A stretch of 33,578 nt of DNA, taken from Hadesarchaea archaeon (lineage in GTDB: Archaea; Hadarchaeota; Hadarchaeia; Hadarchaeales; Hadarchaeaceae). The stretch is from contig DAOUSU010000002.1 of NCBI GenBank assembly GCA_030627035.1, forward strand, positions 1 to 33,578. The letters run 5' to 3'. Shown here piece after piece: positions 1,574-22,770 of the stretch; position 1 is the first letter of the stretch; each line of letters opens with the position of its first letter. A model generated the notes under the pieces. That model searched no databases, was not told the DNA's origin, and saw only the letters and a program-made list of their open reading frames with translations. A program made the position numbers and the translations under genes.

Positions 1574-2701
1574 TCAAACTAACCCATATGTCGTCGTTCG
1601 CTGCATGGGCACGCGTCCGAGTTCCAGGGCAAGTTTTTCGAGTTGTTTGGGGAGCATCGCCTGTCGCTTCCCTCCAGCAGCCCGCGTGATGTTCTCCTCG
1701 AGCAGCGTCCCCGAGAGGTCGTTGGCCCCGGCGCCCAGCATGATCTGTGCCCCCCGAGGGCCCAGCTTCACCCACGAGGTCTGGATGTTGTCGATGTGCC
1801 CCGCAAGCATCAGGCGCGCGACGGCATGCACGCGAAGGCTCTCAACGGTGTTCGGTGGCGAGCGGACGACGCCCTCATGATAAAGCGGGGTGTTGTAGGG
1901 CATGAACGCCAGCGGAACGAACTCGGTGAAACCCCCGGTCTCGCGCTGAATTTCGCGGATGAGCGCCAGATGTTCGGCCCGCTCGCGCGGCGTCTCAACG
2001 GTGCCGTAAAGCATGGTTGCGGTCGTGGGGAGGCCCAATCGATGGCATGTTTTGATGATATCGGTCCATTCTTTCGTGCTCGGCTTCTTCGGGCATATGA
2101 TTGCGCGGACGCGGTCAACCAGAATTTCAGCGGCAGTGCCCGGCACGGAGTTCAACCCGGCCTCGCGCAGCGTCTTGGCGACCTCCTCGATCGATAATCC
2201 ATCTCGCCTAGCCGCGTGGTCCAGCTCGGCGGGGGAGAACGCGTGAATGTGAATGCTTTGGGAAACGTTCCTCACTACACGGAGGATCGCGAGATAATCA
2301 TCAAACCCGAACTCCGGGTGCAATCCCCCCTGGATGCATACCTCGGTCGCCCCGAACTTCACCGCTTCACGAACTTTCGCAGCGATCTGCTCGGGGGTGA
2401 ACGCATAAGCGTCTGGGTCGCCGGGTGAGCGTCTGAAGGCGCAGAACTTGCAGGTACCCACGCAGACGTTAGTGAAATTTATGTTTCGATTAACCACGTA
2501 GGTCACGACATCCCCAACTGCTCGGCGCCTTACTTCATCTGCTACCCGAACCAATGCATGCAGCTCTGGCCCCTCGGCTTGTAACAGCTGTTCGCCCTCG
2601 GCCACGCTCAGCTCCTCACCGGCCAGCGCATGTTGCAAAATTTCTTCGAACTCCGGTTCAGCAAGCACGGTATCCATCCTCGTCTGCAAGCGCAAGGACA
2701 C
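1574..2701 (-). CDS. cofH: FO synthase subunit 2 (7,8-didemethyl-8-hydroxy-5-deazariboflavin synthase, CofH), radical SAM
   Basis: 375-aa ORF with the radical-SAM CxxxCxxC motif (CVGTCKFCAF) and a CofH-like length and layout. It lies immediately downstream of cofG and overlaps it. The start could be ATG 2701 or ATG 2677. Confidence 0.88.
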   Translation of the reverse strand: MSLRLQTRMDTVLAEPEFEEILQHALAGEELSVAEGEQLLQAEGPELHALVRVADEVRRRAVGDVVTYVVNRNINFTNVCVGTCKFCAFRRSPGDPDAYAFTPEQIAAKVREAVKFGATEVCIQGGLHPEFGFDDYLAILRVVRNVSQSIHIHAFSPAELDHAARRDGLSIEEVAKTLREAGLNSVPGTAAEILVDRVRAIICPKKPSTKEWTDIIKTCHRLGLPTTATMLYGTVETPRERAEHLALIREIQRETGGFTEFVPLAFMPYNTPLYHEGVVRSPPNTVESLRVHAVARLMLAGHIDNIQTSWVKLGPRGAQIMLGAGANDLSGTLLEENITRAAGGKRQAMLPKQLEKLALELGRVPMQRTTTYGLV

Positions 2702-3668
2702 TCATTCTCACCTCCCTCGACATGAACTTCTCGTCCTTCACATAACGCGGGTAGATCGGCAAGCGCTCGCGCGGCACGAAGCCGGCGCGCTCGACTGCGG
2801 CCCGAAGTTCTGCGACGCTTGGCCAGGGTTGCTCGGGATTTACGAAGTCGGGGGTCACGGACGAGATGCCCCCTAGGTCGTTCGCACCCGTGAGCAGGAA
2901 TTGATTTAAATCTCGCACCAAGTTGGGCGGCACTTGGATATTCATCTCTGGCATGAGCCGACGCGCCATCGCGACCGTCGCGAGTAACTCGCCCTCGCTC
3001 GGCCCCGCGTAGGTTGCCATGGGCGTGTTTGGTTTTGGCACGAACGGTTGGATGATGACCTCCTGGATGTGGCCGTATTTTGCCTGCAGTTCACGGATTG
3101 CGAGCAGCGATCGTGCCCTGTTCTCAGAGCTCTCACCTATGCCGATCAACAATCCGGTCGTGAAGGGTATTCGTAGTTTTCCCGCCGTTTTGACAACCTC
3201 GAGCCGAAGCTTGGGATCCTTCCCGGGGCTCTGCGCATGCGCGGGGAGTTCGGCGGCGCACTCGAGCATCAGCCCCATGCTGGCGTTGTAGCGGCGCAGC
3301 TGCCGAAGCTCCCGCTCATTCAGCAGGCCGGCGTTGGTGTGGGGGAGCAGGCCGAGTTCTAAAATTTGTTTGCAAAGGTATTCGAGGTAATCGATCGTGC
3401 TCCCGTATCCAAATGCCTCGAGTTTTTCCTTGGCCTCGGCATGAACCTCGGGCCGCTCGCCGAGGGTGAGCAAGGCTTCAGAACAGCCAGCGACTTTGGA
3501 CCTCTTCGCCAGCTCGAGGACTTGCGCGGGCGACATGAACCAAGCGCCATCGTTGGGGTCCCGCCTGAATCCGCAATAGGCGCAGCGGTTTCGGCAGAGG
3601 TTTGTGACAGGCAAGAAGACATTGCGGGAGTAGCTAACCTCTCGCCTGGGCCCTGAACCGCCATTCAA
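2658..3668 (-). CDS. cofG: FO synthase subunit 1 (CofG), radical SAM
   Basis: Radical-SAM motif CRNRCAYCGF preceded by SYSRNVFLPVTN, which is typical of CofG N-termini. The track ORF extends to TTG 3797, but that start would overlap the divergent cofC gene and the AT-rich promoter region. An in-frame TTG at 3668 leaves 11 aa before the conserved block, so I prefer it. The start remains uncertain. Confidence 0.85.
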   Translation of the reverse strand: MNGGSGPRREVSYSRNVFLPVTNLCRNRCAYCGFRRDPNDGAWFMSPAQVLELAKRSKVAGCSEALLTLGERPEVHAEAKEKLEAFGYGSTIDYLEYLCKQILELGLLPHTNAGLLNERELRQLRRYNASMGLMLECAAELPAHAQSPGKDPKLRLEVVKTAGKLRIPFTTGLLIGIGESSENRARSLLAIRELQAKYGHIQEVIIQPFVPKPNTPMATYAGPSEGELLATVAMARRLMPEMNIQVPPNLVRDLNQFLLTGANDLGGISSVTPDFVNPEQPWPSVAELRAAVERAGFVPRERLPIYPRYVKDEKFMSREVRMSVLALADEDGYRAC

Positions 3669-3716
3669 TCGAGCACCACCATAAAAGTGCGCGATGCCAT
3701 AAATACGCCTGATTAT

Positions 3717-4376
3717 ATGCCGACCTGGGCCATCATCCCCGTCAAGCGCCTGAGGGGGGCGAAGTCGAGCCTCAGCCAAACGCTGACGCCCGAACAACGC
3801 TGGGAGCTCGTGCTCTGCATGCTGGCCGACGTTCTGAATGCCCTGCGAGAGACATCGATGAAAGCGCTGGTCGTCTCACCTGATGATGGTGTCTTGGACT
3901 TCGCCGATGAACACGGTGCCGCATGTCTCAAAGAACCAGGGCTGGAGCTGAACGAGGCGCTAAAGCTTGCGATCCGTCACGTTTCAACCAAAGGCGCCGA
4001 CTCCGTGTTAATAATGCCCGCAGACCTGCCATTGCTCAAGGTGGCTGACATCGAGAACATCCTCGCAATGGCTTCCCTGCATAAGGATGTCGTGATCGCG
4101 CCCTCGAAGGCCAACGGAACGAATGCCCTTTTCCTGCGCCCACCGGACATCATCGAGCTGAAATTTGGCGGCGAGAGTTTCCCACTGCACGTTGCCGAAT
4201 GTCTAAAGAGAGATATTAACCCGCACGTTTATCGCTCACCAACCACTGCCACGGACATCGACGAAGCCGCCGATCTCCTGAGTGTTGAGACGTTGGGGCT
4301 GGGCACGCGCACGTACAATTTCCTGCGCTCGTTGGCTAGCGAGATGTCGACGGAAGGTCCGAATCGACGCGCGTGA
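3717..4376 (+). CDS. cofC: 2-phospho-L-lactate guanylyltransferase (CofC), F420 biosynthesis
   Basis: The N-terminus MPTWAIIPVKRLRGAKSSL matches the CofC/MobA-like signature (IIPVK...AKSRL). Length is about 220 aa and the gene is divergent from cofG. I prefer ATG 3717 to the track's GTG 3687. TATA-like runs (ATAAAA, ATAAATA, ATTATAT) lie at 3681-3717. Confidence 0.8.
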   Translation: MPTWAIIPVKRLRGAKSSLSQTLTPEQRWELVLCMLADVLNALRETSMKALVVSPDDGVLDFADEHGAACLKEPGLELNEALKLAIRHVSTKGADSVLIMPADLPLLKVADIENILAMASLHKDVVIAPSKANGTNALFLRPPDIIELKFGGESFPLHVAECLKRDINPHVYRSPTTATDIDEAADLLSVETLGLGTRTYNFLRSLASEMSTEGPNRRA

Positions 4377-4421
4377 TCAAGCAAGAGGGCTAGCTCAAGG
4401 AACGAATACGGGTTTTGAGGT

Positions 4422-4484
4422 GCCTCAGTCCGCCCATCAGTCATATCATGGCCGAAGCTCAGACGATGTTGTGACATCATCGGC
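4422..4484 (-). ncRNA. Candidate C/D-box sRNA (copy A)
   Basis: The minus-strand RNA reads cGCC-G-AUGAUGU-CACAACAUCGU-CUGA-GCUUCGGCC-AUGAUAU-GAC-UGAUGGGCGGA-CUGA-GGCa. It has a terminal 3-bp stem and a box C/box D pair able to form a kink-turn (bulge GAU, G.A/A.G, U.U, G-C). The internal D' CUGA is present and C' is degenerate. The D guide UGAUGGGCGGA is complementary to the universal 16S sequence CCGCCCGUCA. Confidence 0.55.
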
Positions 4485-4612
4485 GTTCAAGAAATGATCC
4501 TCTTCGGATAAGAATTTTATGAGACAACTGAAGTACTGCTAACTCGGCTTTCATCTTATTTTTTTGGAGCGGTTGATCGAAACCTTCGTTCAGGCGGGAA
4601 GAGGTCACCGAT

Positions 4613-4681
4613 GGCACGTCAGTCCGCCCATCATCCCGTCATCGCGAAGCTCAGACGATATTAATTAACATCATCCGTGCC
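4613..4681 (-). ncRNA. Candidate C/D-box sRNA (copy B)
   Basis: The minus-strand RNA reads GGCACG-G-AUGAUGU-UAAUUAAUAUCGU-CUGA-GCUUCGC-GAUGA-CGGGA-UGAUGGGCGGA-CUGA-CGUGCC. It has a perfect 6-bp terminal stem flanking box C and box D with canonical kink-turn geometry. The internal D' CUGA and C' cGAUGA can form a K-loop. The D guide is identical to copy A. A TTTTTAC run lies about 23 nt upstream. Confidence 0.6.
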
Positions 4682-4772
4682 AATTTAGTTCAGCTTTTGT
4701 CAAGTAAAAACGTTGAGGTTGAGAAGAAAGAAGAAAGCAGTTTTTATCTAACTTTTCTGATTAGTAAAGCGT

Positions 4773-5984
4773 TCATCCAAACATCCGCTCGGGCTTCGGT
4801 GTCTTTGGAATCTTGGCCGGAGGCAGAACCTTCGCTATCGCCAGATCGAAGTCGGCTCGCTCCACCCTCCCGCGTCCCTCGCGGATCGCAAACATCCCCG
4901 CCTCGGTGCAGATCGCCTTGATATCGGCTCCCGTTGCCCGGTCCGTCCGCTTCGCGAGTTCCTTCGCATCCACGTTCTTCGTCACGTTCATCCCCTTCAT
5001 GTGGATGTTGAAGATGATGGCTCGCGCCTCTTCGTTCGGGAGGGGGAAGTGGATTAGCCTGTCGAAGCGCCTAGGGCGAAGCAGGGCTGGGTCCAGGATG
5101 TCAGGGCGATTGGTCGCGGCCAAGATCTTGATGTCACCGCGTGGGTCAAATCCGTCGACCTCCGCCAGCAACTGCACGAGGGTGCGGTGGACCTCCCGAT
5201 CGCCGCTCGTGGATGCATCAAGGCGGCGGGCAGCGATCGCGTCGAGCTCGTCGATGAACACGATGCTCGGCGTCTTCTCGCGGGCCAGCTCGAACATCTC
5301 ACGCACCATCCGGGCCCCCTCGCCTATGTATTTCTGCACGAGCTCCGAGCCTATCACCCGGATGAAGGTTGCTCGAGTTTCGTGGGCAACCGCCCTAGCG
5401 AGCAAGGTTTTCCCGGTCCCGGGGGCGCCATAGAGGAGCACCCCCTTCGGGGGCTCGATGCCCACCTTCTTGAAAAGTTCGGGCTTCAGCAGCGGGAGTT
5501 CCACGCTCTCTCGAATTTCCTGAATCTGTTCCGCGAGCCCACCAACATCCGCATAGCTGACCTCCGGCGCCTCCTCGATCTCCATCCCGAGCACGAGCGG
5601 GTCCTTTTTCGATGGCAATATCTCCATTATGCTGAGATTTCGCTGGTTGAGCGCCACCCGCACGCCCGGCTTGAGCTGCTCCGGTTTGATGAGCTGTGGC
5701 ACGTTTACGACGAAATGGGGTCCGGTGCTGCTCCTAACGACCGCGCGCCCATCCGCCAGCGTATCTAGCAAAGTGGCAGCGACCAATGGCGGCGCGCGCA
5801 TCCGCTCGAACTCGGCGCGGAGGCTTCGAAGCTCGCGATCTATGTGCAGAGATCGACTCTCGAGCGAGCGCTTCTCGCGCTCCAGCTCACGGACGCGATT
5901 TTCCAGACTGTGGATGTAATCCGTAACATAGCTCTCGCCAAAAGCGTTTGCCCTCGGTTCCTTGGGTTTAGCTGCACCCGACAA
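4773..5984 (-). CDS. pan: Proteasome-activating nucleotidase (PAN), AAA+ ATPase
   Basis: 403 aa. The N-terminus is coiled-coil-like ([35 protein letters not shown]). Walker A is GAPGTGKT and Walker B is IVFIDELD, followed by an Rpt/PAN-type AAA module. Confidence 0.92.
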
Positions 5985-6056: not shown

Positions 6057-7820
6057 CTAATGCCCCCGCCAAATCCAGTAGGCGACCAAACCGATCGCAA
6101 CTATCGCTCCCGCAACGAGTAAAAATGGCAACAGTTTTTCCCAGTCGATGAAAATCCCCTCCTCGCTCGGAGGCTTTCCGAGGGCAATGATAACGATGTT
6201 GGCATGTTGGATCGCGTCTTGGGCCAGCCGAATTGCATCCGCATCGCTTGCCATCTGCGCCTGTGCGAGCTCCGCGCGCGCAAGTTTGAGCTTCTGGTAC
6301 AAAGTTTCCATATTCTCGGATGCAAGCATTCCGTCCGCCCGGTCGATCGCCAGCTTCCCAGCTTGAATGAATGCCTGTGCGGCTTCGGGATTCGTGAGCA
6401 CAACGAGGTTCTCCTCCTCACCCACACTTGGTTGGCTATCCCGCCACTTGTACTCCGAGGCGGATTCGGATGAACTCAAACCGCGGACATTCCGAAGCAG
6501 ATGGATCGGGTCGAGCTTGAACAGGTAGTCGCCTGATGGTTTGGCCCAAGTCGGATCGGCTGGCTGCCACCCCTTACCCGGCAAATAGAACTCAACCCAC
6601 GCGTGACCGATGAATTTCTCCTCGTGGTACCCCCAGCCGAAATCGATGCGCGCCGGCAGGCCAACAGCTCGGCTTAAGGCGATCGTGAGGTCGCTGAAGC
6701 AATCGCAGTCCCCGGCTCCGGTGAGGAGGGTTCGGAGCGCCCCCTTTCGCTGCGGGGTGACCTCGTAACTGATGTAACTGCTAACGAATTCGACTATTCG
6801 CTCCGCCACGCGATAGGTGTTGGTTTCACCTCCAACTACCTCCTTGGCCCTCTGTTGGATGCTTGGATCATCGACCTCCCAGTACTCGTCCGCCTTCAGA
6901 TAGGGCGAGAGTTCTGCAGGCACCTCGGCCAATGTACCGACCTGGTCATCGGTAATATCGGGCAAGTAAACGATCTCGGAGAAGACGAGCTTGATGTTCA
7001 AATCCCGGCTTTCACCCGGCTGTAGGTCGCCAATTTCGAACACTCCATGCCAGTTGTTTTCGTTATCCACGTACATGGTTTCGATCGGCAGGCCGGACCA
7101 CTCAAGGGCGGCGAACTGCGATTGACTGTGGGAGAACAAAATCGTGTCGAGGAGGATGGTTTTGGAGTCCCTAGCCCCCGGGTTGCTGAAGTGCTCGGTT
7201 AGGGTGAGCTTGTAGTAAACTGGTTGCAAATAAAATCTTGTTTCTAGTCCATCGAAACTTCCTGGGGCGCTGACGCTTGTTTCATACTGGACGGTGGGCG
7301 GGTCGTTCTCCGAAAGCTGGGCTTTGTCCGGATTTTTCAGAAAAAGCGTTGAACCAGCGGGGCCCCGAATCCTCACGATGTATCTATGGCAAGGGAACCC
7401 ATCCGCATCCAGAGAGATCCCCCCAAATCTGCCCACATAGCTAGGGCCGGTTCCAGAGACCAAATCGCTGGCGTCATAAGAGATGTGATACGTCACTCTG
7501 GTTTTACCGCGAAGCGTGAAGCGGACCGTGATCTTCGTCTTTCCGAGAGGTCTATCTACATTGTAGCTCAGATTCCCCGCGTCGCCACAAACGTTGACGT
7601 TGGTGGTGTTCTCTGTTGGGATAATGCGCGTGATCGTGTAGGAAGAAGTTGCCCAAGATGGGCCAGGGTTATAGAGGGTGTAATTCTCGCTGGCGCCGAT
7701 GGTTCGATCCAGATTGATGTTGTAACTCAACTCCACAAGCTCGTAATATGCGGTCGCTGGCCGTGCACTGGCCGGCGCCGCCGTGGCCATCACGAGCACG
7801 ACCAATAACACAAGCAGCAT
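6057..7820 (-). CDS. Transglutaminase-like domain protein with a signal peptide and a C-terminal membrane anchor
   Basis: Transglutaminase core Cys-His-Asp context: GAGDCDCFSDLTIALSRAVGLPAR ... IGHAWVEFY ... GWQPADPT. ATG 7820 gives the signal-like N-terminus MLLVLLVVLVMATAAPASA. The C-terminal TM segment is LLPFLLVAGAIVAIGLVAYWIW. The track's start at 7931 would overlap hflX. Confidence 0.8.
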   Translation of the reverse strand: MLLVLLVVLVMATAAPASARPATAYYELVELSYNINLDRTIGASENYTLYNPGPSWATSSYTITRIIPTENTTNVNVCGDAGNLSYNVDRPLGKTKITVRFTLRGKTRVTYHISYDASDLVSGTGPSYVGRFGGISLDADGFPCHRYIVRIRGPAGSTLFLKNPDKAQLSENDPPTVQYETSVSAPGSFDGLETRFYLQPVYYKLTLTEHFSNPGARDSKTILLDTILFSHSQSQFAALEWSGLPIETMYVDNENNWHGVFEIGDLQPGESRDLNIKLVFSEIVYLPDITDDQVGTLAEVPAELSPYLKADEYWEVDDPSIQQRAKEVVGGETNTYRVAERIVEFVSSYISYEVTPQRKGALRTLLTGAGDCDCFSDLTIALSRAVGLPARIDFGWGYHEEKFIGHAWVEFYLPGKGWQPADPTWAKPSGDYLFKLDPIHLLRNVRGLSSSESASEYKWRDSQPSVGEEENLVVLTNPEAAQAFIQAGKLAIDRADGMLASENMETLYQKLKLARAELAQAQMASDADAIRLAQDAIQHANIVIIALGKPPSEEGIFIDWEKLLPFLLVAGAIVAIGLVAYWIWRGH

Positions 7821-7881
7821 TTTTCTCAACTGATTCCCCACCTTTTTTGAGTTAAACCAGCGATATTTTAAACGGTGCCGT

Positions 7882-8949
7882 ATGCGCGTCGTGCTTGTTG
7901 AACGTCGGTCACGCGGGGAAAGGTCTCGCATGGAGGAGCTCGCTGCCTTGGCTAAAACGTTGGATTACGAGATCGTCGCTGCCCTCGAACAAATCGGTGG
8001 GCCTAACCCGGCTTATCACATCGGCAAGGGCAAGGCCCAAGAGCTGGCGAGGTTGGTCCGCTCGAGCGAGGCGGAGCGCGTAATTTTCAACAACCAACTC
8101 ACCCCCTCCCAGGCTTTCAAGCTCTCCCGGCTCGTCGGTGTAGATGTAATCGACCGGTTCCAGCTAATCCTCGAAATATTCGCCATGCGGGCAGGATCGC
8201 CTGAGGCGAAGCTCCAGGTCGAGTACGCCAGACTCCGCTACGAGCTACCGCGCATCCGAGAGCAGGTGCGAGCGATGACCCTGATAGAGCAACCAGGCTT
8301 TCACGGCCCCGGTGAGCCCGAGGTTGACGTTCGCTACGACATGGTCAGGCGAAAACTGGCAAACTTGAGGCGAAAGTTGAGGTCGGTAGGTCGTTCGCGC
8401 GAACAGAGGCGCAAGCGCAGGCGAAGGCGTGGCTTCAAGCTCGTGGCGCTAGCGGGTTATACAAACGCCGGGAAGTCGACCTTGCTAAATGCCCTGACAG
8501 CCGCAAACGCCGAGGTCGATGACATGCTCTTCACGACTCTCATGCCCCGGACGCGCGTCATGGGGGCAAGCCGAAAGGTCCTGCTGACCGACACCGTCGG
8601 CTTCATCGACGGTTTGCCGCCTTGGTTGATCGAGGCGTTTAAGGCGACGTTGGAGGAGATATACCTCGCTGACCTCGTCGTGCTCGTCGTCGATGGGGCC
8701 GAGCCATTGTCGGAGCTTCTTCGAAAACTTCGGACATCGAGGGAGGTGCTTGTAGAATATCCCGTAAAAGTCGTCACGGCCCTGAACAAGATCGATCTCA
8801 TTCCTCCCGAGGAACTTGGGAACAAGCTCGGGGTCCTAAACGATGCTGTGGCAACGATCGTCCCGATCTCGGCGAGCGAGCGCATAAACCTTGCCCCCCT
8901 GATCGAGGCGATAAGGACCAACATTTTCGGCGACAGCAGGGCATCCTGA
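7882..8949 (+). CDS. hflX: GTPase HflX
   Basis: G1 GYTNAGKSTL, G3 DTVGF, G4 NKID. The HflX N-terminal domain carries the conserved EAKLQVEYARLRYELPR helix. The first strand MRVVLV resembles the remembered E. coli HflX N-terminus (EQAVLV), which supports ATG 7882 over ATG 7930. Confidence 0.9.
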   Translation: MRVVLVERRSRGERSRMEELAALAKTLDYEIVAALEQIGGPNPAYHIGKGKAQELARLVRSSEAERVIFNNQLTPSQAFKLSRLVGVDVIDRFQLILEIFAMRAGSPEAKLQVEYARLRYELPRIREQVRAMTLIEQPGFHGPGEPEVDVRYDMVRRKLANLRRKLRSVGRSREQRRKRRRRRGFKLVALAGYTNAGKSTLLNALTAANAEVDDMLFTTLMPRTRVMGASRKVLLTDTVGFIDGLPPWLIEAFKATLEEIYLADLVVLVVDGAEPLSELLRKLRTSREVLVEYPVKVVTALNKIDLIPPEELGNKLGVLNDAVATIVPISASERINLAPLIEAIRTNIFGDSRAS

Positions 8950-14574: not shown

Positions 14575-14958
14575 CTATCCAACCCCAACTGTCGCTTCGT
14601 CCGCATTGACGATCAGTTTATCTCCTGTCTTGATCTTGTCGATATCAATTCCGTCGACACAGGGGATCCCAGCCAGAATGACTCCCGTCGCCACAACCGT
14701 TTCCGTTTCCTTATTCACGATCGCTGCAGGAGCAACTCCATTTCGCTTCATCCCATAAATCACGTATGACCCTACAGTGGAGCCCTTTCCCTGCGGAAAA
14801 ACTAGGATTTTCTCCTTAACCGATTGCCCTTCAAGCTCGTGCCCCTTCTCAATCACGACGCCGGTCTTGGGGTCGATTCCGCCGTAGAACCCTATCGGCT
14901 CCTTTGAAACAATCGCCTCGCCCTCTGCTTTTCCTGGACTGATCATGCGACCCTTCAC
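14575..14958 (-). CDS. Aconitase X swivel-domain protein (DUF126); putative phosphomevalonate dehydratase small subunit
   Basis: 127 aa with an AcnX small-subunit pattern (GEAIVSKEPIGFYGGIDPKTGVV...KILVFPQGKGSTVGSYVIY). Overlaps the stop of the large subunit by 4 nt. Confidence 0.82.
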   Translation of the reverse strand: MKGRMISPGKAEGEAIVSKEPIGFYGGIDPKTGVVIEKGHELEGQSVKEKILVFPQGKGSTVGSYVIYGMKRNGVAPAAIVNKETETVVATGVILAGIPCVDGIDIDKIKTGDKLIVNADEATVGVG

Positions 14959-16142
14959 GCAAGCACCTTCTTTAACAGCTCATTCACGTTGCCAAAAATT
15001 ACCTCCTGTTTACAGAAGCCTGGCAGGTAGTTGGCCGCCTTTCCAGAATTCACAGCCGTACGCTTGAAACCCATGCGTTCGATCGGCGAAACCACAGCGC
15101 AGGTGTCTGCAACAACTTTCCCCCCAGCTCGCTCAACCTGCTCGACAAATCCAAGTTTCGTGGCTGTTTCCTTGGTCGTGCGTGCGGTGCAAATCCAAAG
15201 CGGCTTTCGCAACCGCTTTCCTTCGAGCTTGTTCGCCAGAGTTGCGATCTCCTTCAACGAGGCGTGGGGGCAGCCGAGGATGACGATATCTGGTTCTCGC
15301 CCGGTGTTGAGCTTCTCGCAAGTTTCCTTTAACTCACGTTCCCCAACCTCGATCACCTCGAGGTTTTTAGGATCCATGAGACGAGCCTCCGGTGTCAGGC
15401 CCTCCACGTGATAAAGGGCGACAGCCCCCGACGCCGCCATCGCTGCTCCGAACGCCTTCAGCTGGTCGACATCCGCACCCTTGATCCCTTGAAAGTACGG
15501 ATTTCCTTTCTTGACCAGCTTCCCGACGTGGTAGCCCAAGGCGCCGAAATCCGAGTTGTGTTTCAGCTCGGCGTTAACTTTCACCGCCACGCTCGGCTTC
15601 CGGTTCTCGTCTAGGTGCAAGCCATAGTTTGGGGTCACCCCGCAGAGCGCTGCGGCTAGCGCAGATGGCCCACCCTCGCGGTTCGTGCGCGCACCTATCA
15701 CAGAGTTTGCGAATGAAACCGCCGACGACTCGGACCACGCGATGTGCTCTCCGAAACGCGGGAGATTACCGACTAGGTAGGGGGTGCAAGTCGCAGTCAT
15801 CATTATCCCCATTTTTTTGAATGCCTCCATTATGCACAGCTGCTTTTTGGCGAAATCCTCGGGGAACCCCAATTCCCTCCAGTCCACGAGATCCATGCCG
15901 GGCGGATTCAAGGTCGTGGGTACTCGGACCTTCGCCCCCTTGCCCGCCATGTCCTCCAAGAACTCTAGCCCGGGATCGCCTATCGATTTGTAAGAAACGC
16001 CCGCGACCTGAACTGACCCGACTGGAATCATCCGATCGGCGCCGTAGATGTCCCCGAGGCGCACGAGCAAGCGGAACATCCGCTCGAGGACCTCACCCCT
16101 CTCGCCGGCCAGGATTCGCTCTTCCTCCTTCGTTAAATACAC
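14955..16142 (-). CDS. Aconitase X catalytic-domain protein (DUF521); putative phosphomevalonate dehydratase large subunit
   Basis: 395 aa. The N-terminus MYLTKEEERILAGERGEVLERMF and the TLNPPGMDL and CTPYL blocks are typical of DUF521/AcnX large subunits. Its position within an mvk/UbiD operon supports the call. Confidence 0.85.
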   Translation of the reverse strand: MYLTKEEERILAGERGEVLERMFRLLVRLGDIYGADRMIPVGSVQVAGVSYKSIGDPGLEFLEDMAGKGAKVRVPTTLNPPGMDLVDWRELGFPEDFAKKQLCIMEAFKKMGIMMTATCTPYLVGNLPRFGEHIAWSESSAVSFANSVIGARTNREGGPSALAAALCGVTPNYGLHLDENRKPSVAVKVNAELKHNSDFGALGYHVGKLVKKGNPYFQGIKGADVDQLKAFGAAMAASGAVALYHVEGLTPEARLMDPKNLEVIEVGERELKETCEKLNTGREPDIVILGCPHASLKEIATLANKLEGKRLRKPLWICTARTTKETATKLGFVEQVERAGGKVVADTCAVVSPIERMGFKRTAVNSGKAANYLPGFCKQEVIFGNVNELLKKVLA

Positions 16143-16146
16143 ACGA

Positions 16147-17421
16147 TCACTCCAGGTAGTCTTTCAACTCAAGTTTCAATGGGAGTTCTGGCTTTTTGAA
16201 ATCCTTGGGATCGCGCCCGCTCGGTATGGTCAAGTCGAATCCCATTTTGGTCGTCATGCGCGTCTCGAGTTCCGATGAGGGATCGAGGGATGAGCCCTTC
16301 TCGCGTTTGATGACGAGGTCTCGATCGCCCTGAAACCTTGTCGCCATCGCCCACTCGATCTCATTCGGGTCATGGATGTTGATATCGTCATCGACCACCC
16401 ACACGTGCTTCAGCGACTTGTGCCCCTTGAACGCTGCCTCTATCGCTTTTCGCCCATCATCTGGGTTTCTCTTCTTTATGCTCACCGCAGCGTGTAGCCA
16501 GGAGCAACCCCCCGGGGTTATCAGCACATCCTTGCACTCACAGACCTTGCTCACCTCGCGGAATATCGTCGGCTCTCGGGGCATGCCCATAAGAATTTTG
16601 TGCTCCAGACCACCCGGGAGTAACGCGTGATAAATGGGATCCTTCTTCACGAATATCCTCTTCACCCTTGCCACCCGCTGCTTTCGCACGATGTCGGGAG
16701 TTTCCGTCAGATCAAGAAATGGGCCCTCATCGTGCTCCTCGCCGGTCATCTCTGCGATCATGATTATTTCAGACCGGGGGACCTTATGGCCCGCCAGATC
16801 CATCAGATCAGTTTCCGATAGGGCGTTTGCTATGCTCAGCTCGCTCCTCCCCAGTTCTGCCGAGACCGCAGATGCCACCAAGACCGGCATAGAATTCCCT
16901 ATGCAGATCGCGAACTCTTTATTCCCGCGCCTCAAGAATTCGTCGAAATGTCGTGGGAGTATTCGAATCACGAGCCTGTCTTTTCCTATAACCATCATCC
17001 GTTGATACGAGGCGTTGAGGCCGAGTTCGGGGTCGCTCGCGACAACGACGCCGGAGGAGATGTAGGGCCCCCCGTCGATTGGATAGTGAGTCAGAATTGG
17101 AATCTTCGTGAGGTCGACGTCCATTTCCCCATAACCCTCCGCTTTCACCACCCGCGGCTCCTTCGGGTGATCGATTGCATCGGCCAGTTTGCTTATGATC
17201 TCCTCTTTCTTTATTCCCAGACCTATTGCGATCAACTCGCGCGAGGAGCACAGGTTCGCCACCACGGGCATCGAGAAACCCTTGACCCGCTCAAATAGGA
17301 TCGGCCTTCCGTCGAGGAGCTTCATCAGAGTTGCAATCTCGTATTTGACGTCAACTGGGCGCTTGATTTTTATCAAGAGCCCCTGCCTGTCCAAAGCATC
17401 GATGAACTCCCGCAAGTTCAC
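16147..17421 (-). CDS. UbiD-family decarboxylase; putative trans-anhydromevalonate 5-phosphate decarboxylase
   Basis: 424 aa with the UbiD-like N-terminus MNLREFIDALDRQGLLIKIKRPVDVKYEIA. It lies between mvk and the AcnX pair with gaps of 2-4 nt. Confidence 0.8.
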   Translation of the reverse strand: MNLREFIDALDRQGLLIKIKRPVDVKYEIATLMKLLDGRPILFERVKGFSMPVVANLCSSRELIAIGLGIKKEEIISKLADAIDHPKEPRVVKAEGYGEMDVDLTKIPILTHYPIDGGPYISSGVVVASDPELGLNASYQRMMVIGKDRLVIRILPRHFDEFLRRGNKEFAICIGNSMPVLVASAVSAELGRSELSIANALSETDLMDLAGHKVPRSEIIMIAEMTGEEHDEGPFLDLTETPDIVRKQRVARVKRIFVKKDPIYHALLPGGLEHKILMGMPREPTIFREVSKVCECKDVLITPGGCSWLHAAVSIKKRNPDDGRKAIEAAFKGHKSLKHVWVVDDDINIHDPNEIEWAMATRFQGDRDLVIKREKGSSLDPSSELETRMTTKMGFDLTIPSGRDPKDFKKPELPLKLELKDYLE

Positions 17422-17423
17422 AG

Positions 17424-18353
17424 CTACACCCCGATTTTCGTCCTCAGGGCCTCAAAGCCCTCCCCTTCGATCGCGCAGGCAACTTTTTCCTGTAGCTCTT
17501 TTCCGGGGGTTAGCGCGACCATGTTTCCGCCAAGCCCTCCACCCGTCATCTTCGCGCCGAACGCGCCCTGCTTGCGTGCCAGCTCGACCAAAAAATCGAG
17601 TTCCCTACATGAGACCTCGATCGCCTGTAGTTGTTTGTGATTTTCATCCATCAATTCCCCAACCTTTTTTATATCATATGCTTCGAGCGCCCTTCTGGCT
17701 TTGTGAGCCAGTTCTTCCGCTTCCTTGAAAATCTTGTTATACTTCTCGGGGTACTTCTCCCTCCGTTCTCGAACCCCTGCAACCGCCGCCTTCGTGTTCG
17801 CTACCAGCCCGGTGTTTCCCACCACCACCTCGACCGGGCGCTTGATCTTTATCCGCTCCATCATGTTTGGCTGCCCACGCACAAACCAGATCAGCCCCCC
17901 GTAGGTCGCCGCGGTGTTGTCGATTCCCGAAGGGGTGCCGTGGTAACCCTTCTCCCCCTCATAGGCCAGCTCGTTTATCCGCTCATCCGAGAGCCCCAAG
18001 TTAAACTCATCGGAGAGGGCCCTCGCGATCGCGGTGCAGGACGCCGCGCTTGCCCCAATCCCGCTGGCCGCAACCAAGTCCCCTGCGAGGGTTATTTTGA
18101 TTGGATTTTTCATGGTGTCAATTCCAGCCGCTTTTAGTATTCGCTCCACAGACTCTTTCTGTTGCTCGAGCTTTTCCTCCTTGTACCCTGGCGTGGCATG
18201 TCGGCGGTCATCCAAGGTCCATCCAGTTCCATCCGCGCGCTCAACGGTGGCGGTGGTAGCCTTGTCGATGGCCGAGACGATCGAGGGCACGCCGTAAACA
18301 ACGAAGTGTTCATTGAAGAGGATCACCTTCCCATATCCGATGCCTTTTCCCAT
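17424..18353 (-). CDS. mvk: Mevalonate kinase (GHMP kinase)
   Basis: GKVILFNEHFVVYG N-terminal motif, GHMP motif ASGIGASAASCTAIARAL, and a C-terminal KMTGGGLGG motif. I prefer ATG 18353 (MGKGIGYGKVILF). Alternatives are ATG 18368 and TTG 18377. Confidence 0.9.
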   Translation of the reverse strand: MGKGIGYGKVILFNEHFVVYGVPSIVSAIDKATTATVERADGTGWTLDDRRHATPGYKEEKLEQQKESVERILKAAGIDTMKNPIKITLAGDLVAASGIGASAASCTAIARALSDEFNLGLSDERINELAYEGEKGYHGTPSGIDNTAATYGGLIWFVRGQPNMMERIKIKRPVEVVVGNTGLVANTKAAVAGVRERREKYPEKYNKIFKEAEELAHKARRALEAYDIKKVGELMDENHKQLQAIEVSCRELDFLVELARKQGAFGAKMTGGGLGGNMVALTPGKELQEKVACAIEGEGFEALRTKIGV

Positions 18354-18406
18354 CAAACGGCCTCGCATATGTCCCAAATTTTGTCGATAGCATTTCGGTG
18401 GGTACC

Positions 18407-20973: not shown

Positions 20974-22770
20974 GTGCATATCAAAAAAATTGCTCTAATT
21001 GTTATCCTCGTGGGCGTCACGATAGCATTTGTATCAATCACATACCTCCTGATGCACCAACGGGAATTTGAGAAATTCGTAAAAATGGATGGTATCTTAA
21101 TTGACCTCGACGCAAATGGGAATGCCAGCTGCCAGTTCATCGCGTGCGTTCCTCCGTCCAAATTGGCTGATGTGTTGAAGCGCGTGACTTCAGCGACCGG
21201 TGTCGACAAGATGGGAGAGATGTATGTGGAGAGCATGCGGGGCTCGCTCGCCCGATATGGCCTTGAAATGAAAAATCCCGTTTGTGAAGTAACGGGGCTC
21301 GGCACAGAAGAAAATTTCAAAATAGTCATGTCATGGAAAACCGATGCTTTTGCTAGGTGGGAAAACAATGTTTGGAGGATAAACATGGAGTTTGTGGACA
21401 GGGAAAGTGCCGTCCAAGAGATAGTCGCCGAGCAATACTCCTTGTGGGCATCAATCCTCTCTGTTTCTGAAAACGCCCAGTATGAAGTCTTCCAGAGAAC
21501 TACACTCGCCCTGCCAAGCGGTGCGGAAAATGTCGAATGCTCGCTCATCGGTACTTGGAAGATTGATTACGGTGGCGGGTCATACGAGATCGACTCGGTA
21601 TATTTGGGATGGATCGATGGTAAAACCACCATTATCGAGAATGATTACGCTTTGATCGCGACCGAACACGAGATAACGCTAACGTTTCAGCAGTTTCTTG
21701 AGAACTACTCCGCATATACTGTAACTTATAGCAGCGGCCCCCCTGAAGACGCATCTTTTACAAGCTCCGTGAACCTAGTTCGTCTAGATTTGAAATACGG
21801 GCGGGAACTCAGCGAGTCCTATTTAATTTACGATGGAGGGTCATGGTACTCCCTCTCCCCAGCGCAGGTGCTGTACTACGCTGCCGATGCAATCGTGACT
21901 ACAAGTCAAGGGGGCAAATTTTCAATTCAGGAACCGGTCAAAGGCGTTGTCCCCCCAGATGATGAAAGTGGCGATTGGACAAGCTGCTGGAAGGATCTCT
22001 CGAAGGACGAATACGTCGCCATAGCGCGCGCGGTTTGCGAGGAAATAGACTCCACAGGCAAGGTGCCGGGCACGCTTGGAACTATCATTGGAAACCTCAG
22101 GTTCAGGGACATTTTGTTTACCTTTACCAGGATCCTTTCCAGCTATGGGGGGTTAGAAGGATTGCCGGGGGAAGTTACCTTCGTACCAGCCCCTTCGGGT
22201 GAGTTGACCTGGGATAACAACGTGGTCCCCGCGAATCACGCGTACTTCCTGCTCCCGGATACCTTCGTGATTATCGACACCCCTATGGTACACGAAGTGT
22301 TGGAGAACATCCTACAACCCAACTACGATAACCGAGAGCTCGCCGAGGAGATCTGCAACTGGACGGGCACCAACATTACTTATGGACTATCGTTGGCCCC
22401 ACCGACATCTGAAGAGGTATTGATCTCGAGGAAAGGTCAGTGCAGGGACTATACAAATGTGTACCTCGCACTGAGCAGGACGGCCGGGATACCCGCTAGA
22501 AGGGTAAGTGGATGGGTCATCACAAAGTGGCAACCGCCCGCAGGTTGGGAGTTCGTTGTGGGAACGACGCCCGATGGAAAAACTGTTGCGAGCCACGCGT
22601 GGGTCCAAGTATTTGTGCTTGGGGAAGAATGGGTACAAGTGGAACCACAGAGTAAAAGACCAAATCTGTACATGGGGGAGCTCCCTTATGAGGTGTACAA
22701 GCAGGTTGAAGTTAAACAAACGTGGATGGAGGCGCTCGCTGCATACGAGACGGCACGTGGATTGATTTAA
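20974..22770 (+). CDS. Transglutaminase-like domain protein with an N-terminal membrane anchor
   Basis: N-terminal TM segment IALIVILVGVTIAFVSITYLL, followed by a large extracytoplasmic region. The C-terminal transglutaminase core is GQCRDYTNVYLALSRTAGIPARRVSGW ... SHAWVQVF ... WVQVEPQ. GTG start. Confidence 0.8.
   Translation: MHIKKIALIVILVGVTIAFVSITYLLMHQREFEKFVKMDGILIDLDANGNASCQFIACVPPSKLADVLKRVTSATGVDKMGEMYVESMRGSLARYGLEMKNPVCEVTGLGTEENFKIVMSWKTDAFARWENNVWRINMEFVDRESAVQEIVAEQYSLWASILSVSENAQYEVFQRTTLALPSGAENVECSLIGTWKIDYGGGSYEIDSVYLGWIDGKTTIIENDYALIATEHEITLTFQQFLENYSAYTVTYSSGPPEDASFTSSVNLVRLDLKYGRELSESYLIYDGGSWYSLSPAQVLYYAADAIVTTSQGGKFSIQEPVKGVVPPDDESGDWTSCWKDLSKDEYVAIARAVCEEIDSTGKVPGTLGTIIGNLRFRDILFTFTRILSSYGGLEGLPGEVTFVPAPSGELTWDNNVVPANHAYFLLPDTFVIIDTPMVHEVLENILQPNYDNRELAEEICNWTGTNITYGLSLAPPTSEEVLISRKGQCRDYTNVYLALSRTAGIPARRVSGWVITKWQPPAGWEFVVGTTPDGKTVASHAWVQVFVLGEEWVQVEPQSKRPNLYMGELPYEVYKQVEVKQTWMEALAAYETARGLI

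Follow-up and report, generated by a model that had tools for sequence, protein, structure and literature searches.

The gap of 396 nt that separates cofC from pan in this archaeal genome contains two imperfect direct repeats, and the question is whether these are genes for small guide RNAs and, if so, towards which nucleotide the RNAs would be directed. The repeats lie in a stretch of 33,578 nt, the whole of which was analysed and is further called the window. An original prediction had described two imperfect direct copies in this gap, which was confirmed by repeat comparison and by the count of a shared 15-mer. Positions 4425–4439 and 4619–4633 are identical in 15 of 15 nucleotides (TCAGTCCGCCCATCA), positions 4453–4470 and 4645–4662 share 94% identity, and TCAGTCCGCCCATCA occurs exactly twice in the whole window, where 0.11 matches are expected by chance even if up to two mismatches are allowed. 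The names given to the flanking genes hold as well, with NCBIfam assigning cofC to 3687–4376 on the plus strand and pan to 4773–5984 on the minus strand.

The PAN protein of the window is 94–81% identical to metagenomic proteins and 84–81% identical to PAN on contigs labelled Hadesarchaea or Hadarchaeota, and the region is contained in sequencing runs from metagenomes of marine or hydrothermal sediment. An sRNA gene is located immediately downstream of pan, on the same strand, in the relatives L019, L036, L091, L121, L122 and L125. On the cofC side the locus adjoins a cofH, cofG, cofC cluster for F420 biosynthesis (1574–4376), and cofC is found within 2–3 kb of the sRNA gene also in L034, L070 and L082. 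The window further holds adjacent genes for AcnX, a UbiD-like decarboxylase and a GHMP kinase (14955–18377), which is the set of genes of the modified mevalonate pathway in archaea, and genes for two large proteins of 624 and 598 aa (6057–7931 and 20974–22770) that have a transglutaminase-like core and no NCBIfam match; an orthologue of the 624-aa protein also flanks pan in L122 and L123. Contig L089 (JASEGJ010000012.1) bears the label Candidatus Hodarchaeaceae (Asgard), although its PAN shares 76% identity with that of the window and an A-type sRNA of the Hadarchaeota family is present on it; the label may be due to a mix-up of Hadarchaeota and Hodarchaeota.

Structure of the two genes

Copy A (4422–4484, A-type) measures 63 nt and copy B (4612–4682, B-type) 71 nt from stem to stem. 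On the minus strand copy A reads GCC-G-AUGAUGU-CACAACAUCGU-CUGA-GCUUCGGC-CAUGAUAU-GACUGAUGGGCGGA-CUGA-GGC and copy B reads UGGCACG-G-AUGAUGU-UAAUUAAUAUCGU-CUGA-GCUUCGC-GAUGACGG-GAUGAUGGGCGGA-CUGA-CGUGCCA. The strand, the order of the boxes and the geometry of the terminal kink-turn are as the original prediction had them. Both copies carry AUGAUGU close to the 5′ end and CUGA close to the 3′ end, in line with the RUGAUGA/CUGA pattern of boxes C and D, with U instead of A at position 7 of box C in 19 of the 19 family members. Box C occupies 4474–4480 in copy A, in columns that are invariant over these 19 members, and 4668–4674 in copy B, with G4481 and G4675 as the respective first bulge nucleotides; box D is at 4425–4428 and 4619–4622. 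These boxes were placed by reading of the sequence and by the family alignment. When the kink-turn sequence rule (PMC7994747) is applied to the two copies, each has GA in boxes C and D, a U.U pair and the G–C pair between position 6 of box C and position 1 of box D.

The terminal stem of copy A consists of 3 bp, as had been stated, and that of copy B is indeed paired, the difference being that it can extend to 7 bp instead of the 6 bp claimed. Internally, both copies have a box D′ (CUGA), at 4459–4462 in copy A, where it is invariant in the family, and at 4651–4654 in copy B, where the family alignment places it. This box is followed by a mini-hairpin and a degenerate box C′, so that the elements of a second kink-turn or k-loop are present in both. 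In copy A this part (4443–4458) is made up of the mini-hairpin GCUUCGGC at 4451–4458, a pair of which covaries in the family, and C′ AUGAUAU at 4443–4449; in copy B (4636–4650) it is made up of the mini-hairpin GCUUCGC at 4644–4650 and C′ AUGACGG at 4636–4642. The nucleotide before C′ is C in copy A, (C)AUGAUAU, and G in copy B, (G)AUGACGG.

The spacers between C and D′ are CACAACAUCGU in copy A (4463–4473, 11 nt) and UAAUUAAUAUCGU in copy B (4655–4667, 13 nt), and those that precede box D, which form the D guides, are GACUGAUGGGCGGA in copy A (4429–4442, 14 nt) and GAUGAUGGGCGGA in copy B (4623–4635, 13 nt). Taken together, these lengths are close to the 10–12 nt that have been reported, without staying inside that range (PMC7994747). 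The earlier statement that the spacers before box D exceed the usual 12 nt is right, although the lengths of 15–16 nt given for them should be replaced by 14 (A) and 13 (B) in the C′ register that fits a kink-turn.

A family of related archaeal genes

Relatives of the two copies were collected with a search pattern derived from the window, so that the observed conservation of box C, guide and box D is partly circular; box D′, box C′, both stems, the promoter and the synteny were not part of the pattern. A covariance model (R1) was built from 17 Hadarchaeota-type relatives from other genomes, with the sequences of the window left out. It recovers copy A with 78.1 bits (E=2.1e-21) and copy B with 72.3 bits (E=1.2e-19), and the next-best match in the 33.6-kb window has E=0.63.

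The terminal stem is paired in 84.6% of the alignment cells as compared to 66.8% in shuffled alignments, and none of 500 shuffles reaches the observed value; if the stem partners are slid along each other, at most 41.5% of the cells are paired. Two-sided changes are found in five of the six pairs, and the covariation score was likewise reached by 0 of 500 shuffles. The pair of columns 6 and 70 occurs as GC (9), AU (6) and CG (2), and the pair of columns 8 and 68 as CG (11) and GC (6), with no unpaired case at either. The mini-stem of 2 bp that follows D′ has a C–G pair in 9 relatives and A–U in 3.

A scan with one genome per species and a pattern of box C, gap, guide and box D, gave at least 120 matches, and those listed comprise 31 archaeal and 89 bacterial ones. 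Among the matches listed, a terminal stem of 3 bp or more is found in 29/31 archaeal versus 2/89 bacterial sequences, CUGA of D′ at the canonical distance in 21/31 versus 0/89, and a stop-free frame in 2/31 versus 72/89, the bacterial matches typically encoding ...MMGGL.... Since these counts differ so sharply, the archaeal matches represent one kind of gene, and those in bacteria are due to chance. The D guide occurs in canonical C/D architecture under the labels Hadarchaeota, DPANN, Heimdall, Thermoplasmatota and Thermoproteota.

An Rfam search, one of the checks that the original prediction had named, returns no match in the window at the gathering threshold, and a gathering search of 16 same-guide loci from other phyla found only tRNAs. 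In E-value mode, 15 weak matches are obtained in the region, all on the minus strand, of which 14 are to C/D-box families and one is to a scaRNA; the best are snoR77Y (E=0.032; 24.5 bits versus a cut-off of 52) and sR2 (E=0.038; 19.9 versus 42). A scan of the window with a strict C/D pattern has copy B as its sole match, and the literature that was searched contained no paper about sRNAs of Hadarchaeota. The family that shares this guide appears to be uncurated in Rfam. With these data, we are highly confident that copies A and B are archaeal C/D-box sRNA genes.

Origin and maintenance of the tandem pair

The closest relative, L121, whose PAN is 94% identical to that of the window, has a single copy with which copy A shares 91% identity. 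Copy B shares 83% with the B-type single copies of L036, L061 and L122, and copies A and B share only 75% with one another. Because each copy is nearer to single-copy relatives than to its neighbour, the two are, judged from these identities, old paralogues and not products of a recent duplication. Their description as paralogous was thus correct, with the addition that the duplication is old. One position, just behind pan, is taken by an A-type gene in some lineages and by a B-type gene in others. The tandem arrangement is no assembly artefact, since contigs that reach across both copies exist in other public metagenome runs: A and B occur together on metagenome contigs of X1, X5 and X6 (window 4414–5000). 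There are two other arrangements. An abundant relative, with a depth of about 210x and 305x, carries B alone, and in X8 a joint of 4518 to 4780 removes copy B and leaves A alone. In the simplest reading, an old tandem duplication would have been followed by differential loss, and this genome would have kept both genes.

It is conceivable that just one copy is functional and that the other is a decaying duplicate, either A, with its stem of 3 bp, or B, with its diverged C–D′ spacer. This would agree with the presence of a single copy per locus in 34/34 relatives examined, and with the A-only and B-only arrangements in related strains. On the other hand, both copies have kept boxes C, D′ and D intact and share an identical stretch of 15 nt that covers guide and box D, each has a paired stem as well as a TATA-like box, their scores of 72–78 bits are within the range of the single-copy relatives (74–90), and the tandem pair persists in several samples. 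We consider decay of one copy improbable.

The D guide and its predicted target in 16S rRNA

The D guide, which is identical in both copies as had been claimed, was compared with the annotated E. coli 16S rRNA as a proxy. The assignment of the target relies on region 1392–1406 of 16S rRNA, a universal primer site, being universally conserved. The guide UGAUGGGCGG forms 10 contiguous pairs with CCGCCCGUCA at 1399–1408, 9 of them Watson–Crick and one G.U with the U in the guide, in agreement with the original prediction, including the placement of N+5 on C1402 (in the E. coli proxy). Counted from box D and in E. coli numbering, a G faces C1402 at N+5 (G4433 in copy A, G4627 in copy B), and an A faces A1398 at N+1. 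A contiguous run with 9 Watson–Crick pairs is found in the E. coli rRNAs only at ACCGCCCGUCA of 16S rRNA.

All of the 31 archaeal matches listed retain the guide, which was part of the search pattern, and its distance from box D is unchanged. The wobble U is present in 19/19 Hadarchaeota-type sequences and in 11/17 others; copies from Thermoproteota and Thermoplasmatota have C at this position, which gives a perfect duplex, and same-guide members from DPANN have spacers of exactly 12 nt. No archaeal rRNA is present in any locus that was retrieved, scans of viral contigs for 16S rRNA gave bacterial 16S only, and mapping of metagenome contigs on a bacterial 16S reference (L299) yielded collapsed conserved fragments whose depth is not attributable to one organism.

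A separate observation concerns six IMG/VR contigs of low GC content (~30%) that share a conserved element, located at L260:6653 and L278:8520 on the plus strand and on the minus strand of L284, L288, L296 and L302. It contains a 19-nt copy of bacterial 16S 1394–1412 (ACACACCGCCCGTCACACC) in 5/6 contigs and its first 15 nt only in L302. An inverted repeat (TTATTTTG / CAAAATAA) has the copy in its loop, and a gene on the other strand starts at a distance of about 45 nt; when read on the strand of that gene, the element looks like an anti-16S sequence in a 5′ leader.

The complementarity to 1399–1408 could also be used without formation of Cm1402, if the RNAs are real C/D-box sRNAs that act mainly as chaperones of rRNA folding or on another target. 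The duplex is only 10 bp long and has a G.U pair and a mismatch at N+1, model archaea have few methylation predictions in helix 44 and none at C1402 (PMC4644070), and chaperone roles for C/D sRNAs have been proposed in a review (PMC7994747). However, the same review reports archaeal guides of 10–12 nt, the 31 archaeal matches listed, which come from several phyla, all have the guide in unchanged register, and Cm1402 exists in at least one archaeon, N. equitans. A role mainly as chaperones or on another target is quite improbable.

The spacer between box C and box D′

The 3′ part of the C–D′ spacer, ACAUCGU, is nearly invariant in the family, and its 5′ part differs between members both in sequence and in length (CACG, CACA, CAAG, CAG, CAC, CACUG, UACG, UUUA, UAUA). 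Together with the C of D′, these conserved 7 nt are exactly complementary, in reverse orientation, to box C of the same RNA with the preceding nucleotide (G-AUGAUGU). Folding predicts a hairpin of 8–9 bp, at 4462–4481 in copy A and 4654–4675 in copy B on the minus strand (columns 9–16 and 23–30 of alignment A2), in which the variable part of the spacer falls at the loop; for copy B, 9 bp are possible. Over 19 sequences, 92.7% of the cells of this hairpin are paired, and a C-to-U change in copy B retains a G.U pair. Since box C never varies, double covariation is not possible for this structure. The hairpin is predicted to compete with the C/D kink-turn.

No confident target for the C–D′ spacer was found in the E. 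coli rRNAs. In one candidate, positions 816–826 of 16S rRNA, E. coli ACGAUGUCG and the family consensus CACGACAUCGU form 9 Watson–Crick pairs with N+5 on U820. A metagenome scan for GTAAACGATGTYGTG returned at least 120 matches, none of those listed being in a 16S context; with thousands of matches expected by chance, such a scan has little power, and this D′ target is unsupported. A second candidate, in the peptidyl-transferase loop of 23S rRNA around 2501–2508 (UCGAUGUCGG; 8 Watson–Crick pairs, N+5 on U2504), is unsupported as well, the match of an 8-mer in about 4.5 kb of rRNA not being significant and the N+8 pair being broken in 7/19 members. In the relative L103 (208–279), an unrelated C–D′ spacer, CACGGUAAGC, is present that lacks the hairpin with box C, and the rest of the RNA is conserved. 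This is a natural spacer swap, useful for testing the role of the spacer.

Probable transcription of the genes

A TATA/BRE-like element, AUAAAA-TTCTTATC, is present upstream of copy A at 4507–4520 on the minus strand and ends 22 nt before the stem; this element occurs at equal distance in L121, L125, L019, L091, L089 and others. For copy B, a TATA-like element, CG-TTTTTACT, was located by eye at 4703–4712 on the minus strand, ending 20 nt upstream of the stem; a best-match scan did not select it for this copy. In most members of the family a TATA/BRE-like box of the AAAA-TTYTTATC type ends 20–23 nt before the first stem nucleotide, and a TATA-like box is found upstream in L019, L034, L061, L070, L081, L082, L085, L089 and L091, as well as in L103, L105, L109, L112, L121 and L125. 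The box is situated about 26 nt upstream of each gene. This spacing is that expected of an archaeal promoter, and independent transcription is therefore likely; the elements suggest that each sRNA gene would have its own promoter despite its position right behind pan. What is known of archaeal sRNA biogenesis is also compatible with processing from pan read-through (PMC7994747). Three metatranscriptomes of a related study have no coverage of the region, and no public RNA run with the region was found.

A run of seven T is present between the copies on the plus strand (4559–4565), 183 nt past the stop codon of cofC. If it terminates cofC transcripts, the 3′ end of these would be antisense to copy A.

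The location between convergent genes and this T run might fit with protein-independent 3′-end or terminator structures of pan and cofC, or with small ORFs (4229–4480 on the minus and 4282–4497 on the plus strand), but this is highly improbable given that the conserved parts are exactly boxes C, D′, C′ and D plus the guide, that the variation has a non-coding pattern of 1–2-nt indels in loops and compensatory changes in stems, and that the same RNA is found in unrelated genomic contexts in other phyla. A TIGR array or an IS110 bridge RNA was considered and dropped, there being two units only, 194 nt apart, and no gene for a Nop-domain protein or transposase nearby.

Proposed function and relation to known systems

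The best explanation of the two copies, which we regard as highly probable, is that they are genes for C/D-box sRNAs of an uncultivated Hadarchaeota-type archaeon, which would guide methylation of C1402. A TATA/BRE promoter of its own, about 26 nt upstream, would probably drive each gene, with pan read-through as another possible source, and the transcript would be processed to the mature RNA. The short terminal stem would set box C (AUGAUGU) beside box D (CUGA), giving a kink-turn, and D′ (CUGA) with the degenerate C′ would form a second one, closed by the mini-hairpin of 2 bp. L7Ae, Nop5 and fibrillarin would assemble on the C/D and C′/D′ motifs; none of the three is encoded in the 33.6-kb window. 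Pairing of the spacer upstream of box D with 16S 1399–1408 would then place fibrillarin at the ribose of the C1402 equivalent, in the P-site part of the decoding centre. Points that count against this explanation are the terminal U of box C, the degenerate C′ and the stem of 3 bp in copy A, as well as the A opposite A1398 at N+1, the G.U pair in the duplex and the predicted box C/spacer hairpin that would compete with the kink-turn. For the actual production of Cm1402, which is predicted from sequence, our confidence is somewhat lower than for the identity of the genes.

The copies resemble the archaeal box C/D sRNAs such as sR2 (RF01139), sR20 (RF01140) and snoPyro_CD (RF00095) in their length of about 60–70 nt, in the arrangement of boxes and guides (C, guide, D′, C′, guide, D), in the short terminal stem, in the kink-turn rules and the N+5 guide rule, and in the location of the gene close to a protein gene. 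They differ in that they remain below the gathering score of every Rfam family, that box C ends in U, that C′/D′ is closed by a mini-hairpin of 2 bp instead of being a plain k-loop, and that the C′–D spacer has 13–14 nt instead of 12. Copies A and B would thus be new members of a well-known class, with a guide family that appears to be uncurated. In the helix-44 predictions reported for seven model archaea, by contrast, C1402 is absent (PMC4644070).

The nucleotide C1402 contacts the P-site codon, and the bacterial RsmI, which acts on the assembled 30S subunit, carries out at the same nucleotide the same P-site ribose methylation that is predicted for copies A and B. RsmI is a stand-alone protein enzyme, whereas for the two copies the specificity would come from an RNA guide. 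In E. coli, m4Cm1402 is made by RsmH together with RsmI, and archaea lack both genes (PMC2831307). RiboMeth-seq has revealed Cm1402 in N. equitans, for which 'no obvious sRNA candidate' was reported (PMC5389701). Eukaryotes have C/D guides for the same rRNA nucleotide, namely snR70 (yeast), U43/SNORD43 (human) and AtU43 (Arabidopsis), as the copies have by predicted pairing; the 18S nucleotides Cm1639 (yeast, snR70), Cm1703 (human) and Cm1645 (Arabidopsis, AtU43) correspond to E. coli C1402 (PMC2794176; PMC11542601). Similarity to snR70 and U43, be it in sequence or to the models, was not detected, neither family in Rfam matching at E≤10 in the window or in the Heimdall copy L022, and since the target is invariant, homology and convergence with snR70/U43 are indistinguishable. 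We propose that, in archaea, the sRNA has the part that RsmI has in bacteria and snR70/U43 in eukaryotes.

A far-reaching combination of these points can be formulated, which we put forward tentatively and regard as rather doubtful as a whole. The RNA would be the 'missing' archaeal guide for Cm1402 and represent one ancient lineage from DPANN to Asgard that is continued in snR70/U43; ribose methylation of the P-site nucleotide C1402 would be universal to the three domains, with an RNA-guided solution that predates the eukaryotes; and the C–D′ spacer of the Hadarchaeota, no longer a guide, would have turned into a hairpin, sequestering box C and gating the assembly of the RNP.

Copies A and B and their relatives are currently missed by annotation pipelines that are based on Rfam. 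Archaeal guide sets are generally described as fast-evolving, which is why a conserved guide matters. For archaea the literature leaves a gap around C1402, with rsmI absent, helix-44 predictions in model species sparse, and the only Cm1402 that has been measured, that of N. equitans, lacking an identifiable guide. A guide that has the right register across Hadarchaeota, DPANN, Heimdall, Thermoplasmatota and Thermoproteota would fill this gap, and the guide of copies A and B is a concrete and testable candidate for archaeal C1402.
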